A stretch of DNA of 64,000 nucleotides from Escherichia coli (GTDB lineage: Bacteria; Pseudomonadota; Gammaproteobacteria; Enterobacterales; Enterobacteriaceae), in assembly GCF_048403405.1 (NCBI RefSeq), contig NZ_CP183129.1; one strand, 5' to 3'. The notes beneath the pieces were generated by a model that worked only from the letters and a program-made list of their open reading frames with translations, had not been told where the DNA came from and made no database searches. Positions 11,907 to 33,052 of the stretch are shown piece by piece; within the stretch, counting starts at the first letter, position 1, and each line of letters starts with the position of its first letter. The translations under genes and the position numbers were made by a program.

Positions 11907-12602
11907 ATGTCAAACACGCCAATCGAGCTTAAAGGCAGTAGCTTCACTTTATCTGTGGTTCATCTGCATGAGGCAGAACCTAAGGTTATCCATCAGGCGC
12001 TGGAAGACAAAATCGCTCAGGCCCCCGCATTTTTAAAACATGCCCCCGTTGTACTCAACGTCAGTGCACTGGAAGACCCGGTAAACTGGTCAGCGATGCA
12101 TAAGGCGGTTTCGGCAACCGGTTTGCGGGTTATTGGCGTAAGTGGCTGCAAAGATGCGCAACTTAAAGCCGAAATTGAAAAAATGGGGCTGCCTATCCTG
12201 ACGGAAGGAAAGGAAAAAGCGCCGCGTCCAGCTCCCGCACCGCAGGCTCCAGCGCAAAATACAACGCCGGTCACAAAAACGCGTTTAATAGATACCCCGG
12301 TGCGTTCCGGTCAGCGTATTTATGCTCCACAATGTGATCTGATTGTTACAAGCCACGTTAGCGCTGGGGCCGAATTGATTGCCGATGGGAACATTCATGT
12401 CTATGGCATGATGCGCGGTCGTGCGCTGGCAGGGGCAAGTGGTGACCGGGAAACGCAAATATTTTGTACGAACCTGATGGCGGAATTGGTGTCCATCGCA
12501 GGTGAATACTGGCTGAGTGATCAAATCCCAGCAGAATTTTATGGCAAAGCGGCGCGACTGCAGTTAGTCGAAAACGCTTTGACCGTTCAACCGTTAAATT
12601 GA
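11907..12602 (+). CDS. minC: Septum site-determining protein MinC
   Basis: From [44 protein letters not shown] recognised as MinC (231 aa); ORF in track starts at upstream TTG. Confidence 0.9.
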
Positions 12603-25250: not shown

Positions 25251-25563
25251 GCTACGCCTCTGTTAAAAATGTTAATCAATGTTAAGTGAGGTAACAATAG
25301 CAAACTTGTACGAAATATGTGTACAGAATGATAAATTAATTTTTTGCATTTAGTGCTAATACATATAAAACAACAGGTTATGATAAAAAATATTGCATCA
25401 TTTAAATGACAACCTATACAAAAATTTTCGCCAACTCATCTTCAACTTTTTCCATTTTTTATCAATGTAAAGAAACAGTTATGTTTTGGTATTAAAAGAA
25501 AGACACCGGAAGATATGTCTGTTACCGTCTTACTCTCGCCTCTCCCATTACCCTGGACAGTTA

Positions 25564-26775
25564 ATGCTTACCACCCTTATTTATCGTAGCCATATACGTG
25601 ACGACGAACCTGTCAAAAAAATCGAAGAAATGGTTTCGATAGCAAATCGCAGGAACATGCAGTCTGACGTAACAGGGATCTTACTGTTTAATGGTTCTCA
25701 TTTTTTCCAGCTTCTGGAAGGTCCGGAAGAACAGGTTAAAATGATATATCGGGCTATATGCCAGGATCCACGGCACTATAATATTGTTGAGCTGCTGTGC
25801 GATTACGCGCCTGCTCGCCGTTTTGGCAAAGCGGGAATGGAATTATTTGATTTGCGCCTGCACGAGCGAGATGACGTTTTACAGGCCGTATTCGACAAAG
25901 GCACATCAAAATTTCAGCTAACTTATGATGACAGAGCGCTACAATTTTTTCGTACTTTTGTCCTTGCAACCGAACAAGCAACCTATTTCGAGATCCCTGC
26001 CGAAGACTCCTGGCTTTTTATCGCTGACGGATCTGATAAAGAACTTGATTCTTGTACCCTTTCACCAACTATAAATGACCACTTTGCCTTTCATCCTATT
26101 GTCGATCCCTTATCGCGGCGGATAATCGCTTTTGAAGCCATTGTGCAAAAAAATGAAGATAGCCCATCAGCTATAGCGGTTGGGCAGCGTAAAGACGGGG
26201 AAATCTACAAAGCGGATCTCAAAAGTAAGGCGCTTGCATTCGCGATGGCACACGCACTTGAGCTCGGTGATAAAATGATTTCAATCAATCTATTACCTAT
26301 GACCCTGGTTAACGAACCTGACGCAGTCTCTTTTTTACTTGATGAAATAAAGGCCAATGCTCTGGTGCCTGAACAAATCATCGTTGAATTTACTGAAAGT
26401 GAAGTCATATCTCGGTTTGATGAGTTTGCAGAAGCGATTAAATCGCTTAAGGCTGCCGGTATCAGTGTAGCAATTGATCATTTTGGCGCAGGTTTTGCCG
26501 GTTTGTTACTCCTGTCACGCTTCCAGCCTGACAGAATTAAAATCAGTCAGGAATTGATTACCAATGTTCATAAAAGCGGGCCACGGCAGGCAATTATTCA
26601 AGCGATCATAAAATGCTGTACATCACTTGAAATTCAAGTCAGTGCTATGGGCGTGGCAACACCAGAAGAGTGGATGTGGCTTGAATCCGCAGGAATTGAG
26701 ATGTTTCAGGGAGATCTGTTTGCGAAAGCTAAATTGAATGGTATCCCTTCCATAGCGTGGCCAGAGAAAAAATAA
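25564..26775 (+). CDS. bluF: Blue-light sensor BluF (YcgF); BLUF domain plus degenerate EAL domain
   Basis: From MLTTLIYRSHIRDDEPVKKIEEMVSIANRRNMQSDVTGILLFNG (BLUF) with C-terminal EAL-like domain; ORF in track extends upstream to 25486. Confidence 0.85.
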   Translation: MLTTLIYRSHIRDDEPVKKIEEMVSIANRRNMQSDVTGILLFNGSHFFQLLEGPEEQVKMIYRAICQDPRHYNIVELLCDYAPARRFGKAGMELFDLRLHERDDVLQAVFDKGTSKFQLTYDDRALQFFRTFVLATEQATYFEIPAEDSWLFIADGSDKELDSCTLSPTINDHFAFHPIVDPLSRRIIAFEAIVQKNEDSPSAIAVGQRKDGEIYKADLKSKALAFAMAHALELGDKMISINLLPMTLVNEPDAVSFLLDEIKANALVPEQIIVEFTESEVISRFDEFAEAIKSLKAAGISVAIDHFGAGFAGLLLLSRFQPDRIKISQELITNVHKSGPRQAIIQAIIKCCTSLEIQVSAMGVATPEEWMWLESAGIEMFQGDLFAKAKLNGIPSIAWPEKK

Positions 26776-26979: not shown

Positions 26980-27711
26980 GTGGCTTATTACAGCATTGGT
27001 GATGTTGCTGAACGTTGCGGGATTAATCCTGTCACTCTCCGGGCCTGGCAACGCCGCTACGGTTTGTTAAAACCACAGCGCAGTGAAGGCGGACACCGAC
27101 TCTTTGATGAAGAAGACATACAACGCATCGAAGAGATCAAGCGTTGGATAAGTAATGGCGTCCCTGTAGGCAAAGTTAAAGCATTACTGGAAACCACCAG
27201 CCAGGATACGGAAGATGACTGGAGCCGCCTGCAAGAAGAGATGATGTCAATTCTTCGTATGGCTAATCCTGCCAAACTACGCGCGAGAATTATTTCACTG
27301 GGTCGAGAGTACCCAGTAGATCAATTGATTAATCATGTTTACCTTCCTGTTCGCCAGCGTCTCGTGCTTGATCACAACACCTCCCGCATTATGAGCAGTA
27401 TGTTTGACGGCGCATTAATTGAATACGCAGCAGCCTCGCTTTTCGAAATGCGCCGTAAGCCCGGTAAAGAAGCCATTCTGATGGCGTGGAATGTTGAAGA
27501 GAGAGCACGATTGTGGCTGGAAGCATGGCGTTTATCATTGTCAGGATGGCACATTTCTGTTCTTGCTGATCCCATTGAATCGCCGCGCCCGGAACTGTTC
27601 CCGACGCAAACATTGATTGTCTGGACAGGCATGGCACCAACGAGAAGGCAAAACGAACTTTTACAACACTGGGGTGAGCAAGGTTATAAAGTCATCTTTC
27701 ATGCCCCCTAA
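26980..27711 (+). CDS. bluR: MerR-family repressor BluR (YcgE)
   Basis: 243-aa [59 protein letters not shown] (MerR HTH). Confidence 0.85.
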
Positions 27712-27931: not shown

Positions 27932-28336
27932 ATGGATCAGGTTGTTGTTTTTCAAAAGATGTTTGAGCAAGTGAGAAAAGAGCAAAACTTCTCCTGGTTT
28001 TATTCAGAATTAAAACATCACCGTATTGCACATTACATTTATTATCTGGCTACGGATAACATCAGAATTATTACTCACGATGACACGGTTTTGTTATTAA
28101 GAGGAACCAGGAACCTGTTAAAAGTTAGTACGACCAAGAACCCTGCTAAAATAAAAGAGGCCGCATTGCTTCATATTTGCGGAAAATCAACATTTCGGGA
28201 ATACTGTTCAACACTGGCAGGCGCGGGCGTTTTCCGGTGGGTTACTGATGTTAATCATAACAAACGCAGTTACTACGCCATTGATAATACGCTTTTATAT
28301 ATTGAAGATGTAGAAAACAATAAACCATTAATCTAG
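27932..28336 (+). CDS. ycgX: YcgX (DUF1398-family)
   Basis: 134-aa ORF recognised as YcgX; neighbour of bluR and iraM. Confidence 0.7.
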   Translation: MDQVVVFQKMFEQVRKEQNFSWFYSELKHHRIAHYIYYLATDNIRIITHDDTVLLLRGTRNLLKVSTTKNPAKIKEAALLHICGKSTFREYCSTLAGAGVFRWVTDVNHNKRSYYAIDNTLLYIEDVENNKPLI

Positions 28337-29038
28337 CTAAAGTTGGAAGCTTAAGAAATGCTTCATAATTCAGTAAGGCATTAGCATAATGGAAATAAAA
28401 GTGCAGAGACTATCCCTATGGATGATATATACTATCTTTTTATTGCCACCCATAAATAATCACCAGGCCAATACTATCAAATTGATATTTGAAATGTGAT
28501 TACTTGACTTTCTATAAGTTATTTTATAACGGTTAACAAATTTATAAAACCAACGGGCGTGCCATACGCCCGTTTCAATACTTAACGCACATGTGTTTTG
28601 GTTTAGTCATCATCCGGTTATATGTATTTTAGCCAGGAATGGGTTAAACCATTCCTATATAACTAAAAAATTGAAACCTTATTCTCATGTCATGCTTATA
28701 TTCGTCATTATCGTTATATAAAAAGGCCAACCATAATGTTTAGCAAATTGGCACAAAGTAGTATAAAGGCTATGTTTTAATTACAGGATGTTCAGTCATT
28801 TGAATGTATAACATTTTAGCTAAACAAATCTAAAACGAAGTGAATAATTTAATGTTTTCACTAAATCTCATTTTGTTTAATATCTATTGAGATTTCTTGC
28901 TTTAAATTTTGCTTTATATAAACAATGGTTTTAATTTTTGATTAATTTGTTTTTTGGGGAGTAATATACACATATGCAAAGTCAAGAAATGAACATCCAA
29001 ATGAACTATATTAAGCACCGTGGGATAAGACATAACAA

Positions 29039-29362
29039 ATGAAGTGGATAGTAATTGACACGATAATTCAACCTACATGCGGCATATCTTTTTCAGCCAT
29101 ATGGGGTGATATGAAAATGATCATCTGGTATCAATCTACTATATTTCTCCCTCCTGGCAGTATATTTAAACCGGTTAAATCTGGTATTATCTTTAAGGAT
29201 AAAGAATACCCTATTACTATTTATAATATCGCACCATTCAACAAGGATTTATGGATTTTACTCAAAAGCAGTCAAGAGTGTCCTCCAGGAGAAAGCGAAA
29301 TAACAAATAAATGTTTACATAATAGTTGTATTATAAAAATATGCCCATATGGACTCAAGTAA
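29039..29362 (+). CDS. iraM: Anti-adaptor protein IraM (RssB inhibitor; PhoPQ-regulated in K-12)
   Basis: 107-aa [46 protein letters not shown]...; strongly AT-rich gene and upstream region. Confidence 0.8.
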
Positions 29363-29464
29363 TGGGCTTCATATAAATATGCTCGACATGCTATTAATAA
29401 TATCCACATAAATAAAACAACGGGCGTGTTATACGCCCGTTTCATTATTTAACACATGTAGAGA

Positions 29465-30715
29465 TTACATGTTCTTGATGATCGCATCACCAAACTCGCT
29501 ACATTTCAGCAATTTAGCGCCTTCCATCAGACGTTCGAAGTCATAGGTTACGGTCTTGGCGTTGATTGCGCCTTCCATACCTTTAACAATCAGGTCTGCG
29601 GCTTCAGTCCAGCCCATATGGCGCAGCATCATCTCAGCGGAGAGAATAATAGAGCCAGGGTTAACTTTGTCCTGACCGGCATATTTCGGCGCAGTACCGT
29701 GGGTGGCTTCAAACAGGGCGCATTCGTCACCGATGTTTGCGCCTGGGGCGATACCGATACCGCCGACCTGTGCAGCCAGAGCGTCAGAAATGTAGTCACC
29801 GTTCAGGTTCATACAGGCGATAACATCATATTCAGCCGGACGCAGCAGGATCTGTTGCAGGAATGCATCAGCAATCACATCTTTAATGACGATCTCTTTG
29901 CCGGTATTCGGGTTTTTAACTTTCAGCCACGGGCCGCCGTCGATCAGTTCACCGCCAAACTCTTCACGCGCCAGCTGGTAGCCCCAGTCTTTAAACGCGC
30001 CTTCGGTGAACTTCATGATGTTGCCTTTGTGCACCAGGGTCACAGAGTCACGATCGTTAGCAATTGCGTATTCGATCGCGGCACGGACCAGACGTTTGGT
30101 GCCTTCTTCAGAACACGGCTTAATACCGATACCGCAATGTTCCGGGAAGCGAATTTTCTTCACGCCCATCTCTTCACGCAGGAATTTAATCACTTTCTCG
30201 GCGTCGGCAGAGTCAGCTTTCCATTCGATACCCGCATAAATGTCTTCCGAGTTTTCACGGAAGATAACCATATCGGTCAGTTCAGGATGTTTAACCGGGC
30301 TTGGGGTGCCCTGATAGTAACGTACCGGACGCAGGCAGATGTAGAGATCCAGTTCCTGGCGCAGGGCAACGTTCAGAGAACGAATACCGCCACCAACCGG
30401 AGTGGTCAGAGGGCCTTTAATGGCAACGCGATATTCACGAATCAGATCAAGGGTTTCAGCAGGCAGCCAGACATCCTGACCATAAACCTGTGTGGATTTT
30501 TCACCGGTGTAAATTTCCATCCAGGAGATTTTACGCTCGCCTTTATAGGCTTTCTCGACTGCAGCGTCGACCACTTTCAGCATGGCTGGGGTTACATCTA
30601 CACCGATTCCATCACCTTCAATGTAAGGGATAATCGGATTTTCAGGAACGTTGAGTTTGCCGTTTTGCAGGGTGATCTTCTTGCCTTGTGCCGGAACAAC
30701 TACTTTACTTTCCAT
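29465..30715 (-). CDS. icd: NADP-dependent isocitrate dehydrogenase
   Basis: 416-aa [49 protein letters not shown]...; full-length. Confidence 0.95.
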
Positions 30716-30886: not shown

Positions 30887-30937
30887 ATGCGGCAATTCAT
30901 AATCTCTGAAAATACCATGCAAAAAACTTCTTTTAGA
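30887..30937 (+). pseudogene. Displaced 5' remnant of rluE (first ~17 codons) separated from the gene body by ~1.5 kb of inserted DNA
   Basis: Reads ATG CGG CAA TTC ATA ATC TCT GAA AAT ACC ATG CAA AAA ACT TCT TTT AGA = MRQFIISENTMQKTSFR, matching my recollection of the K-12 RluE N-terminus; frame then diverges into nonsense and stops at 31030; an 11-bp motif cttcttttaga recurs at 32439-32449 inside the functional rluE. Confidence 0.45.
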
Positions 30938-31176
30938 CCAAAGACAGTATTTTTCAGACCTTCAAATAAGGCATTAAATATCAATAAGTTACACCAGTTT
31001 TTAAGCAATAAAAAAAACCACCAGAGATAACTAACAGGATGCTATTTGGTCAAAATTTGACATTACTCGACTCAGCGACTATCTCACTTTGAGCACTATT
31101 GGGAAAATTATCAAAAGTCATGGTTGAAGCGACAAGCAACGAGTAAATTATGGCATCCCCCCTTTTTGAGGTTCAC

Positions 31177-31263
31177 ATGAAACGCTTTGCACTGATAGCT
31201 GTGAAACTCGTTGCCTTTACTGGTTCTGCATCTGCTGCAACCGAAGAAATCAACTTCAAGTAA
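31177..31263 (+). CDS. Micro-ORF (28 aa, MKRFALIAVKLVAFTGSASAATEEINFK) preceding the two-gene module
   Basis: ATG 6 nt downstream of gagg; signal-peptide-like hydrophobic core; below 60-aa track cut-off, read directly from sequence. Confidence 0.3.
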   Translation: MKRFALIAVKLVAFTGSASAATEEINFK

Positions 31264-31296
31264 CAGAAACACTATATAACAATGGAGTGTTGACAA

Positions 31297-31746
31297 ATGG
31301 ATACTACCGAAGAACGCAATGGAACATATTTCTACAGAGGACACCCGAACCTGTCCAAAATAGAACTACTCAACGTCATATTCCTTGAAGAATTCTGTAA
31401 GGAATTGGGGATTGATTCGGTATCAGGTGCAGCAATCTTATCTGGTCAACCGTGGCTGGGTACAAGAGCGAAGCCGCAAGGGGCAACCCTGGGAACAAGT
31501 GTTGTCTCAAAGTATGCGCGTATACTGATGAGAGATGCACGCATGCCTTTTGGTATTTCTGTTCATACACCAGTGGGTGTAAGGATGCAGAAATCTAATA
31601 AGCTTGCTGCAATTATCGCTCGTTGGGTCCCGTGGATTGGTTGGGCTTCACTGTCGATGAGTCTTTACAGGGTTTCGACTCGTACCCAGGAAAAATACAA
31701 TCTGATTGCCAAACCTCAAGACCGTATTAAGTGGACTTCCTTCTAA
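31297..31746 (+). CDS. Hypothetical protein (149 aa) with C-terminal hydrophobic segment; first gene of islet module
   Basis: ORF in track; RBS ggag 9 nt upstream; C-terminal predicted helix LAAIIARWVPWIGWASLSMSLY; no family recognised. Confidence 0.55.
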   Translation: MDTTEERNGTYFYRGHPNLSKIELLNVIFLEEFCKELGIDSVSGAAILSGQPWLGTRAKPQGATLGTSVVSKYARILMRDARMPFGISVHTPVGVRMQKSNKLAAIIARWVPWIGWASLSMSLYRVSTRTQEKYNLIAKPQDRIKWTSF

Positions 31747-32081
31747 TGGCGACAACAATCACAGACGAAGTTTTAGCACTGTTCCGTGATGAGATTCCAG
31801 GTTATCAGGATGACCACGGGAAGGAAATTCCGTTAGAACTGGACTCTGATTTGTTCGACTATCCACGAGATGATTTAGAGGACGCTATACGGAAATACAA
31901 AGAGAGGTTTGGGATTAACCTGGATAATCTGGACTGGTCTTTGTACCTTCCATGGGAGTCTGCACCATTGCTTCAACGATGGTTCAAGCTCAAGCGGGAA
32001 GAGGTAGAAACAACACGTTTACCGTTAACTGTACGGATGTTTGCAGAATCAGCAGAAGCGGGAAAATGGCTGTATCAGTAG
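31746..32081 (+). CDS. Hypothetical acidic protein (111 aa); second gene of islet module, translationally coupled
   Basis: Start ATG overlaps stop of upstream gene (TAATG); Asp/Glu-rich N-terminal half (DEIPGYQDDHGKEIPLELDSDLFDYPRDDLEDAI); track ORF begins 5 codons earlier at 31731. Confidence 0.55.
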   Translation: MATTITDEVLALFRDEIPGYQDDHGKEIPLELDSDLFDYPRDDLEDAIRKYKERFGINLDNLDWSLYLPWESAPLLQRWFKLKREEVETTRLPLTVRMFAESAEAGKWLYQ

Positions 32082-32401
32082 AATAAAAAAGAAGGCTGCG
32101 ATGCCCCTCTTATTACTGCTGATGATGGTAGTGGTAAAGCATCATCCTGAACTTGAACAGTGAAGTGCTGTCACCCATCAGTAATACAGAAACACTATTT
32201 TTCATACCAGTATTTATTCAATTCATCAATGTAAAATGTGTTCATTGGGCCATATTTATCACCATGCAGCCACACAACCGCTGCTCACTAACCCAGGTAT
32301 TGATGAAACCGCGCTGAAGAGCCTGAACCCTGAACCTCTAACGAGTACCTTAAAAGTCCAATGCAATCCGACACTGTGCTACCCTCTGCGTATAGCTCTA
32401 T

Positions 32402-33052
32402 TTGGAATTTACCATGAAATACTTTAGCGATTCTAAATCTTCTTTTAGAAAAAAACAGGTTAGTCGACTAAACTCGCAACACTCCACTAAGCGTAAACCT
32501 GAAAACCAGCCCACGCGCGTGATCCTGTTCAATAAACCCTACGATGTTCTTCCGCAGTTCACCGATGAAGCCGGACGCAAAACATTAAAAGAATTCATCC
32601 CGGTTCAGGGCGTTTATGCAGCAGGTCGTCTTGACCGCGATAGCGAAGGGTTACTGGTGCTGACCAATAACGGCGCGTTGCAGGCGCGTTTAACCCAGCC
32701 GGGTAAACGCACCGGAAAAATCTATTATGTGCAGGTGGAAGGTATTCCCACACAAGACGCACTTGAAGCCTTGCGCAATGGCGTAACCTTAAATGATGGC
32801 TCTACCCTGCCCGCAGGCGTAGAGCTGGTTGACGAACCCGCGTGGTTATGGCCGCGGAATCCACCAATTCGTGAACGCAAAAGTATTCCCACCAGCTGGC
32901 TGAAGATCACCTTATATGAAGGACGTAATCGCCAGGTGCGCCGCATGACCGCCCATGTTGGTTTCCCCACGCTGCGACTGATTCGCTATGCGATGGGTGA
33001 TTACTCTTTGGATAATCTTGCCAACGGCGAATGGCGAGAAGCGACAGATTAA
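32402..33052 (+). CDS. rluE: 23S rRNA pseudouridine synthase RluE with non-K-12 N-terminus
   Basis: 216-aa ORF; ...[61 protein letters not shown] (RsuA/RluE fold); first ~30 residues differ from the K-12-like remnant at 30887. Confidence 0.85.

Follow-up and report, generated by a model that had tools for sequence, protein, structure and literature searches.

How did iraM, which encodes an RssB anti-adaptor and RpoS-stability regulator whose presence varies among Escherichia coli lineages, come to lie against the 3′ end of icd? The question is posed by a 64,000-nt stretch of E. coli contig NZ_CP183129.1 (hereafter, the window, whose orientation is the reverse of the K-12 map), in which iraM (29039 to 29362, + strand) converges across a 102-bp gap on an intact icd gene of 416 aa that harbors no inserted element (29465 to 30715, − strand, from the open reading frame [ORF] list and annotation; its stop codon occupies 29465 to 29467 on the + strand). 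Neither end of the e14 prophage (the mcrA/pinE/tfa side or the ymfD/ymfE/lit side) has a match in the 64-kb window, in agreement with an initial annotation of the sequence, which had described icd as free of e14 and followed within about 100 bp by convergent iraM. That annotation further proposed that the iraM segment is an old insertion at the icd recombination hotspot, with two flanking repeats as att-like scars. Our comparisons uphold a discrete inserted iraM unit, bounded by the repeats, at the icd hotspot, but not the repeats as att sites. Rather, the iraM cassette probably entered at the icd terminator through a recombination event that duplicated a terminator-containing segment (R), one copy of which (R1) is now a relic while the other (R2) has been kept. 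What the comparisons show directly is that the two repeats are homologous, that both are copies of the icd terminator, that an exact unit is present or absent as a whole, that R1 and R2 contrast in selection, and that there is a link to the arms of icd-integrating phages.

R1 (28544 to 28594) and R2 (29412 to 29459), both assigned to the − strand, bracket the iraM segment. In a gapped local alignment of the two, 44 positions are identical, 4 are mismatched, and 3 columns contain gaps (44/48 aligned bases identical), and a repeat search returns an ungapped direct repeat of 43 nt and 86% identity (28547 to 28589 and 29414 to 29456; 867 bp from start to start). The hairpins (28552 to 28574 in R1 and 29419 to 29441 in R2) are both of the form AACGGGCGT-loop-ACGCCCGTT, and homology reaches about 20 nt past the hairpin on the icd-proximal side (ACATGTG..TTAA.T.TTGA). 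A pattern consisting of the hairpin plus flank, allowing ≤3 mismatches, matches the 64-kb window exactly twice, at R1 and R2, and 100 shuffles not at all; a word-7 blastn scan detects no third copy in the window. The presence of two similar hairpin-bearing direct repeats around iraM is thereby borne out, although the second does not end exactly at the icd stop, as had been thought: homology ceases at 29459, 5 nt before the stop codon. Across E. coli genomes, R occurs in a median of 2 and a maximum of 5 copies (blastn E ≤ 10), all linked to icd contexts, and this confinement argues against R being a generic terminator, so the check that could have refuted the initial proposal instead favors it. 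Nor does R belong to a dispersed repeat family (REP/BIME, ERIC, miniature inverted-repeat transposable elements, or insertion sequences), given its few genomic copies, two of them in the window, and Rfam contains no family that it matches above threshold.

Read in the icd sense, R2 begins 5 nt after the TAA stop codon and comprises ACATGTGTTAAATAATGA, a GC-rich stem of about 9 to 10 bp (6 GC pairs), the loop ATAAC, and GTTTTAT; it folds at −19.6 kcal/mol (z, −3.9). We predict it to be an intrinsic (rho-independent) terminator, forming with its surroundings the resident 3′ untranslated region (3′ UTR) of icd. It also lies 50 nt past iraM and is terminator-like on both strands, with a T-run on each, so the same element would serve the convergent iraM. 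By alignment, R1 and R2 are two copies of this icd terminator, each consisting of the icd 3′ UTR plus the hairpin, as anticipated by the suggestion that the repeats are terminator containing.

The two copies have had contrasting fates. R1 differs from R2 by a CG insertion, one A>G change, and the loop ATGGC, and its terminator pattern is confined to the minus strand, on which no gene ends at this point. We compared R from nine iraM-positive strains (the window strain, two K-12-type strains, IAI39, O55:H7, E110019, Z30, EECO1006, and C41), four iraM-less strains, and one prophage arm. The stem and loop of icd-adjacent R, be it R2, the empty-site copy, or the phage-arm copy, are invariant in all 14 sequences, whereas the three diagnostic R1 changes are present in 9/9 iraM-positive strains and substitutions break the R1 stem in five of the nine; in K-12, the R1 hairpin fold is lost altogether (z, −0.35). 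This contrast implies that R2 is under selection and that R1 is a relic. No R1-type sequence stands beside the icd stop in any genome (best icd-adjacent R, 96.0%), and none of the phage arms carries an R1-type terminator; in IMG/VR, the R1 hairpin appears in four matches, all of them in the host flank of prophage calls.

Between the repeats lies X (28595 to 29411, + strand), a cassette of about 820 bp that contains ymgK (28736 to 28780, + strand), the upstream/promoter region of iraM, and iraM itself. It is as AT rich as initially described, with a G+C content of 23 to 35% between the repeats versus 50 to 56% in icd. Beyond R1 lie a flank (28497 to 28549, − strand) and the small ORF ymgL (28389 to 28499, + strand, placed by the annotation of strain TUM14771 and by alignment), which converges on R1 or, in iraM-less strains, on a single R with the same kind of flank.

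We scanned 5,426 complete E. coli genomes with a megablast search of the region. The unique part of X is present in 3,936 genomes (72.5%), and a contiguous iraM-less junction, made up of the ymgL flank, one R, and the icd stop, is found in 1,037 (19%); the remainder contain other rearrangements; strain 138, for instance, has a lambdoid prophage beside icd, and iraM of NT1F31 is truncated by IS5. Some megablast records match both flanks at a spacing of only ~460 to 530 bp, and the order in STEC299, Nissle (EcN), AR_0086, and CU532-9 is ycgX, ymgL, one R, and then the stop of icd or of an icdC fragment. In the alignment, this iraM-less junction falls exactly inside the repeat. The single R of the empty site is R2 type at the CG, A/G, and loop sites (all three diagnostic positions) and R1 type in its T-tract and flank, which confines the exchange, in either direction, to CACGCCCGTTGTTTT. 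One R together with the intervening DNA thus amounts to a discrete 867-bp unit, and the locus is built like an islet flanked by direct repeats: its two borders carry the repeat in the same orientation, and there is a natural allele that has a single repeat and lacks the insert. Where the segment is retained, iraM itself is sometimes broken, being frameshifted in E110019 (locus L044, 833 to 1157) and truncated by IS5 in NT1F31 (locus L008, 4002 to 4169), and hence seems dispensable in some lineages.

The initial annotation had suggested checking whether the repeat corresponds to the att core of e14 and phage 21. It does not: phage 21, icdC of K-12, and the prophage calls of IMG/VR join host icd at 29629 to 29631, a point that lies 165 to 167 nt upstream of the last base of the stop codon and leaves R some 170 bp away from the core. 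Judged by position, R is not the att core of either element; it is only the annotated terminator within the host-homologous arm of phage 21 attP. The arm-homologous stretch of the window (29412 to 29631, − strand) consists, as in phage 21-like arms, of ~165 nt from the 3′ end of icd, 5 nt, and all of R, with the e14/phage 21 crossover at its icd-internal end and the opposite end of the arm within 2 bp of the boundary between R2 and X. Phage 21 and ~28 other lambdoid phages match 29412 to 29628 at 93 to 96% identity, covering R2 in full. In the phage 21 record (OL657228), the hairpin is annotated as a terminator and is situated between an ICDH-like pseudogene and the arm-type sites P1 to P3 of the integrase (Int) beside int, and the strain 138 prophage has a layout like that of phage 21. 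R2 is 95 to 96% identical to the terminator segment of the arms, versus 84.6 to 88.2% for R1.

Other expected traces of site-specific integration are likewise missing. Matches to the Int arm-type site (which in phage 21 is YYTTCCCCAAAA, present three times) number 24 in the window at ≤2 mismatches, against 22 expected, with no cluster at R1 or R2. The bracketed segment encodes only ymgK and iraM and holds no integrase or excisionase gene or remnant, and local alignment detects no icd remnant upstream of R1 (z, −0.7; 399 of 500 shuffles align as well). With the crossover some 165 nt inside icd, these results speak against the repeats as att-like scars. Reading the ends of X, we also saw no terminal inverted repeats, although no formal scan for them was made.

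A different connection to the hotspot is provided by the arms of e14-family elements. Past a diverged hairpin (AACGGGAGCGTAACGCTCCCGTT), the e14-family arm continues as TGTTAGGCTGCTAACGGTTATCAAAATTTTATCAAAA. Over about 55 nt, this continuation can be aligned with the chromosomal sequence on the far side of R1 or of the single R (ATAAATATGTTAACCGTTATAAAATAACGTATCAAAA), at a score reached by 0 of 500 shuffles; no such alignment exists between this arm and the iraM-side flank of R2 (z, −0.1). When the arms of K-12 e14, the WP7 element, and metagenome contig L055 are scanned against 4,260 overlapping 120-nt windows of the 64 kb, all three score best on the R1 flank (33, 43, and 37, versus 15 ± 3.3), which resembles the e14-family arm with TTATCAAAA-type repeats. 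Because terminator and ymgL-type flank are contiguous in these three arms, they point to an old iraM-less arrangement that was later interrupted by iraM, and this deduction from the alignments would hold whether the phage acquired the arrangement from a host or the flank in the host is itself the fossil of an arm. On this evidence, what ties the repeats to the icd phage hotspot is the phage arm, not the att core.

The cargo has mobile relatives. The closest paralogues of IraM (family PF11183, PmrD-like), at 60 to 67% identity, are encoded by Stx2 phages, in which the genes lie between stx2B and nanS-p on the opposite strand (e.g., locus L009, 4001 to 4324); a further paralogue is located on an island with an integrase, PerC, and a GGDEF protein, and more distant copies reside on plasmids. 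Homology to the iraM-like genes of Stx phages is restricted to the coding sequence (71% at the nucleotide level), their flanks being nonhomologous. Both iraM and iraL have been reported only from Escherichia and Shigella, with variable presence and with CFT073 lacking iraM (PMC4045071). In lambdoid prophages, ycgX-like DUF1398 genes are found between the lysis genes and Nu1, again on the opposite strand (locus L039, 8001 to 8405), and the relative order and orientation of iraM-like and ycgX-like genes in phages match those of chromosomal ycgX and iraM. As such, the proposal that the iraM segment is an old insertion at the icd hotspot gains support from the exact empty allele, the AT-richness of the segment, its mobile paralogues, the restriction of R to icd, and the e14-arm-like flank.

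The history that we favor would start from the older arrangement, in which convergent ymgL and icd share one R, as they still do in B2-type strains and as is mirrored in e14-family arms. An AT-rich cassette of ~820 bp, comprising iraM and its own regulatory region, would then have entered at the terminator with duplication of R, most simply by a single (Campbell-type) crossover in which chromosomal R recombined with an R-like stretch of an incoming circular DNA. The exchange would have taken place within the 14 to 15 nt of CACGCCCGTTGTTTT, which run from the hairpin loop to the end of the T-tract. Thereafter, R2, beside icd, would have remained under selection as a bidirectional terminator for icd and iraM, and R1, stranded at the ymgL flank, would have lost its role and decayed. 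The R1/R2 pair would also offer the only place for a precise loss of the unit, which may be how B2 strains lost iraM.

The mechanism of insertion, the phage-related source, and the timing are what we infer in this history, and several points weigh against it. We found no donor molecule, integrase, or excised form, and a search of 50,697 phage records gave no match to the non-coding part of X, the 445 bp that precede iraM (28596 to 29040). Only ~15 nt are identical at the presumed exchange point, a short stretch for recombination that depends on RecA. No icd-adjacent R is identical to R1, the best reaching the 96.0% given above; hence, R1 either arrived already diverged or dates from an event much older than the E. 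coli radiation. Finally, the evidence on the ancestral state is indirect, the complete genomes compared being all from E. coli.

The direction of change is the subject of the alternative that survives best, to which we give slightly better than even credence: on this view, the last common ancestor of E. coli already carried the iraM cassette, and the empty site of B2-type strains arose secondarily, when recombination or slippage between R1 and R2 deleted the unit precisely. iraM is carried by K-12, C41/B, E110019, O55:H7, and IAI39, which we take to represent phylogroups A, B1, E, and F (IAI39 being, by our assignment, a phylogroup F strain of the kind usually placed near B2), whereas the sampled iraM-less strains (Nissle, NU14, APEC O18, and ATCC 11775) are presumably all B2 type, and every sampled empty site is accompanied by one and the same ycgX allele (WP_000373104.1). 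IAI39, moreover, combines iraM with the same sit island in icd that is present in Nissle. R1 has three to four changes common to all iraM-positive strains versus about one that is lineage specific, as if the duplication predated the crown group. Set against this, homologous recombination could have spread the cassette among phylogroups, and, leaving aside the probably artefactual assembly EcN_Sk, we found no independent deletion in non-B2 backgrounds (the best full-length match to a synthetic K-12-type empty junction is 94.8%), from which it follows that repeat-mediated loss is at most rare. The shared ycgX allele, IAI39, and the R1 changes make us lean towards an old insertion followed by a single later loss in B2, although recombination between lineages could mimic this pattern.

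Two side observations concern the strains just named. The element in icd of both Nissle (iraM-less) and IAI39 (iraM-positive) carries sitABCD, together with icdC and the hypothetical protein WP_000567449.1 (loci L001 and L032), and leaves a 168-nt icdC beside R. The Nissle-labelled assembly EcN_Sk (locus L054, NZ_CP172017.1, 3153 to 6354) has K-12 alleles of bluF, bluR, ycgX, and the ymgL-like ORF and is 100% identical to the synthetic K-12-type iraM-less junction, yet its structure is that of Nissle (no iraM, with the sit island in icd); it is probably the product of reference-guided assembly or polishing, of contamination, or of laboratory recombination.

Loci outside E. coli say little about polarity. 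In Citrobacter, Klebsiella, Kluyvera, and other genera, the bluF-bluR loci recovered from genome contigs with a BluR query have no icd, ycgX, or iraM within 8 kb and, being removed from icd, are uninformative; from Escherichia, E. coli included, the query recovered no locus. YcgX homologues labelled Escherichia sp. E10V10 and E. albertii were rejected as orthologues, one being a paralogue beside yedE/yedF and the other a paralogue in lambdoid prophages. A search with RluE returned no labelled non-coli Escherichia, and the icd terminator and neighbours of C. koseri are unrelated to those of the window.

A second alternative, which we consider unlikely, depicts the locus as the layered remains of prophages. 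Long ago, a phage with iraM as cargo would have integrated at the icd core, supplying its own icd 3′ end and terminator (R2) and displacing the old 3′ end and terminator (R1) outward, as happened to icdC in K-12; later deletions would have removed the phage body and the displaced icd fragment, so that iraM was left between two terminators. e14 and phage 21 reshape the locus in just this manner (the K-12 order being icd, e14 arm, e14, icdC, R2, iraM, R1), all icd-integrating phages carry R, and the near coincidence of the phage 21 arm end with the R2/X boundary fits as well, as do the abutment of R1 on e14-family-arm-like sequence and the occurrence of iraM-like and ycgX-like genes as reverse-oriented lambdoid late-region cargo in the order and orientation seen here. 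However, the displaced icd 3′ end that should precede R1 is untraceable, at the alignment score already given, and a deletion ending 5 nt past the old stop codon would have to be a coincidence. X also matches no phage DNA outside the coding sequence of iraM, Int arm-type sites are at chance level, and more events are needed than for the single crossover of the favored history.

It is very improbable that R1 and R2 are alike without common history, be it as unrelated or convergent terminators or as copies of a dispersed repeat. On the minus strand, each does form a GC-rich hairpin with a T-run behind it, but the homology that continues past the hairpin, the 44 identities among 48 bases, the absence of the pattern from shuffled sequences, the roughly two copies per genome, all icd linked, the lack of an Rfam family, and the unconserved R1 stem are not what such an origin predicts; extended homology, copy number, and icd linkage effectively refute it. 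Least credible of all is that iraM belongs to the e14 prophage, as stated in PMC4045071 and as its position ~100 bp beyond the end of e14 in K-12 might suggest: the e14-free window, which carries iraM, refutes this, K-12 iraM lies outside icdC and R2 and past the e14/chromosome junction, and in many strains an intact icd is directly followed by R2 and iraM.

Carrying the favored history further, one may imagine the icd terminator as a secondary recombination target, distinct from the icd core, at which small integrase-less cassettes are captured and precisely lost within ~15 nt at the T-tract, with ycgX, ymgL, and iraM captured one after another, in an order that would preserve the history of the hotspot. 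We regard this extension as a long shot.

The unit shares features with several known systems and differs from each in some respects. The host-homologous arm of phage 21 attP has the same icd 3′ end and terminator, with R2 95 to 96% identical, but its core is at the other end, ~165 nt inside icd; R1 and R2, unlike the arm, are not adjoined by int, xis, or YYTTCCCCAAAA, and R1 is a weaker match that is not preceded by icd sequence. The attL/attR sites of e14 and icdC in K-12 involve the same hotspot, the incoming element likewise supplying a substitute gene end and terminator such that a duplicated segment flanks the insert, and the arms of e14 hold a terminator followed by a flank homologous to that of R1. 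e14, however, duplicates 165 to 168 nt of icd coding sequence around a 15-kb element with an integrase, whereas the iraM unit, which is outside e14, duplicates only a 48- to 51-nt non-coding terminator around 0.8 kb that contains no recombinase. Small genomic islets flanked by direct repeats (Campbell-type or site-specific scars) have in common with the unit target repeats at their ends, deviant composition, a single-copy empty site, and cargo with mobile paralogues; the iraM unit differs in having no mobility gene, terminal inverted repeats, or signs of current mobility, and its insertion appears to be a unique event. IraL (on the potB island of CFT073), the iraM-like genes of Stx2 phages, and RssC of Salmonella resemble IraM as members of PF11183 with 59 to 67% identity in horizontally acquired contexts, often on the strand opposite to their neighbours (PMC4045071), but they are free of R-like repeats, none adjoins icd, and their homology is limited to the coding sequence.

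These results fix the boundaries and likely origin of iraM and, contrary to the statement in PMC4045071, place the gene outside e14. They reduce the iraM-less state of B2 and extraintestinal pathogenic E. coli strains to one exact 867-bp unit, usable as a simple PCR or in silico marker, and extend the phage-shuffled segment at the icd hotspot beyond the last 165 coding bases to include a non-coding terminator. We view them as modest new structural detail within well-known biology, involving no new mechanism, class of element, or kind of system.

On the far side of R1, the chromosomal neighbours of the unit are ycgX (27932 to 28336, from the ORF list and annotation, encoding a DUF1398 protein), bluR (26980 to 27711), and bluF (25486 to 26775), all on the + strand. 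The region from 28300 to 29700 is 100% identical to that of E. coli TUM14771. Relative to K-12, the stretch from ymgL to the iraM promoter (28350 to 29100) is 89 to 95% identical, versus 99 to 100% for neighbouring bluR and ycgX. IAI39 is mosaic over this stretch, being 99 to 100% window-like at 28649 to 28950 and 95 to 96% identical beyond.

On the opposite side of icd, the window contains a 1.5-kb insertion (30938 to 32434) relative to K-12 and STEC299, located between icd and rluE and bearing an STM2901-family gene and a DUF1493 gene (31297 to 31746 and 31746 to 32081). This kind of insertion recurs in metagenome contig L055 (ENA ERZ827464 NODE_967, 3800 to 12227), which also holds an e14-type element or arm in icd with an R2-type hairpin and ends before the far flank. 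The contig is ~84% identical to the window in mnmA-purB and 92% identical across icd-rluE, a contrast that suggests, at the level of sequence identity, cross-species exchange of the icd neighbourhood. In the window, the insertion lies within the 5′ end of rluE, whose K-12-type start (MRQFIISENTMQKTSFR...) survives as a truncated ORF at 30887 to 31030; rluE itself restarts at 32414 with a different N-terminus. Both borders display similar segments of ~20 nt (..ACCATG..CTTCTTTTAGA..), and the whole has the appearance of another insertion that replaced a gene end, here on the side of icd away from iraM.

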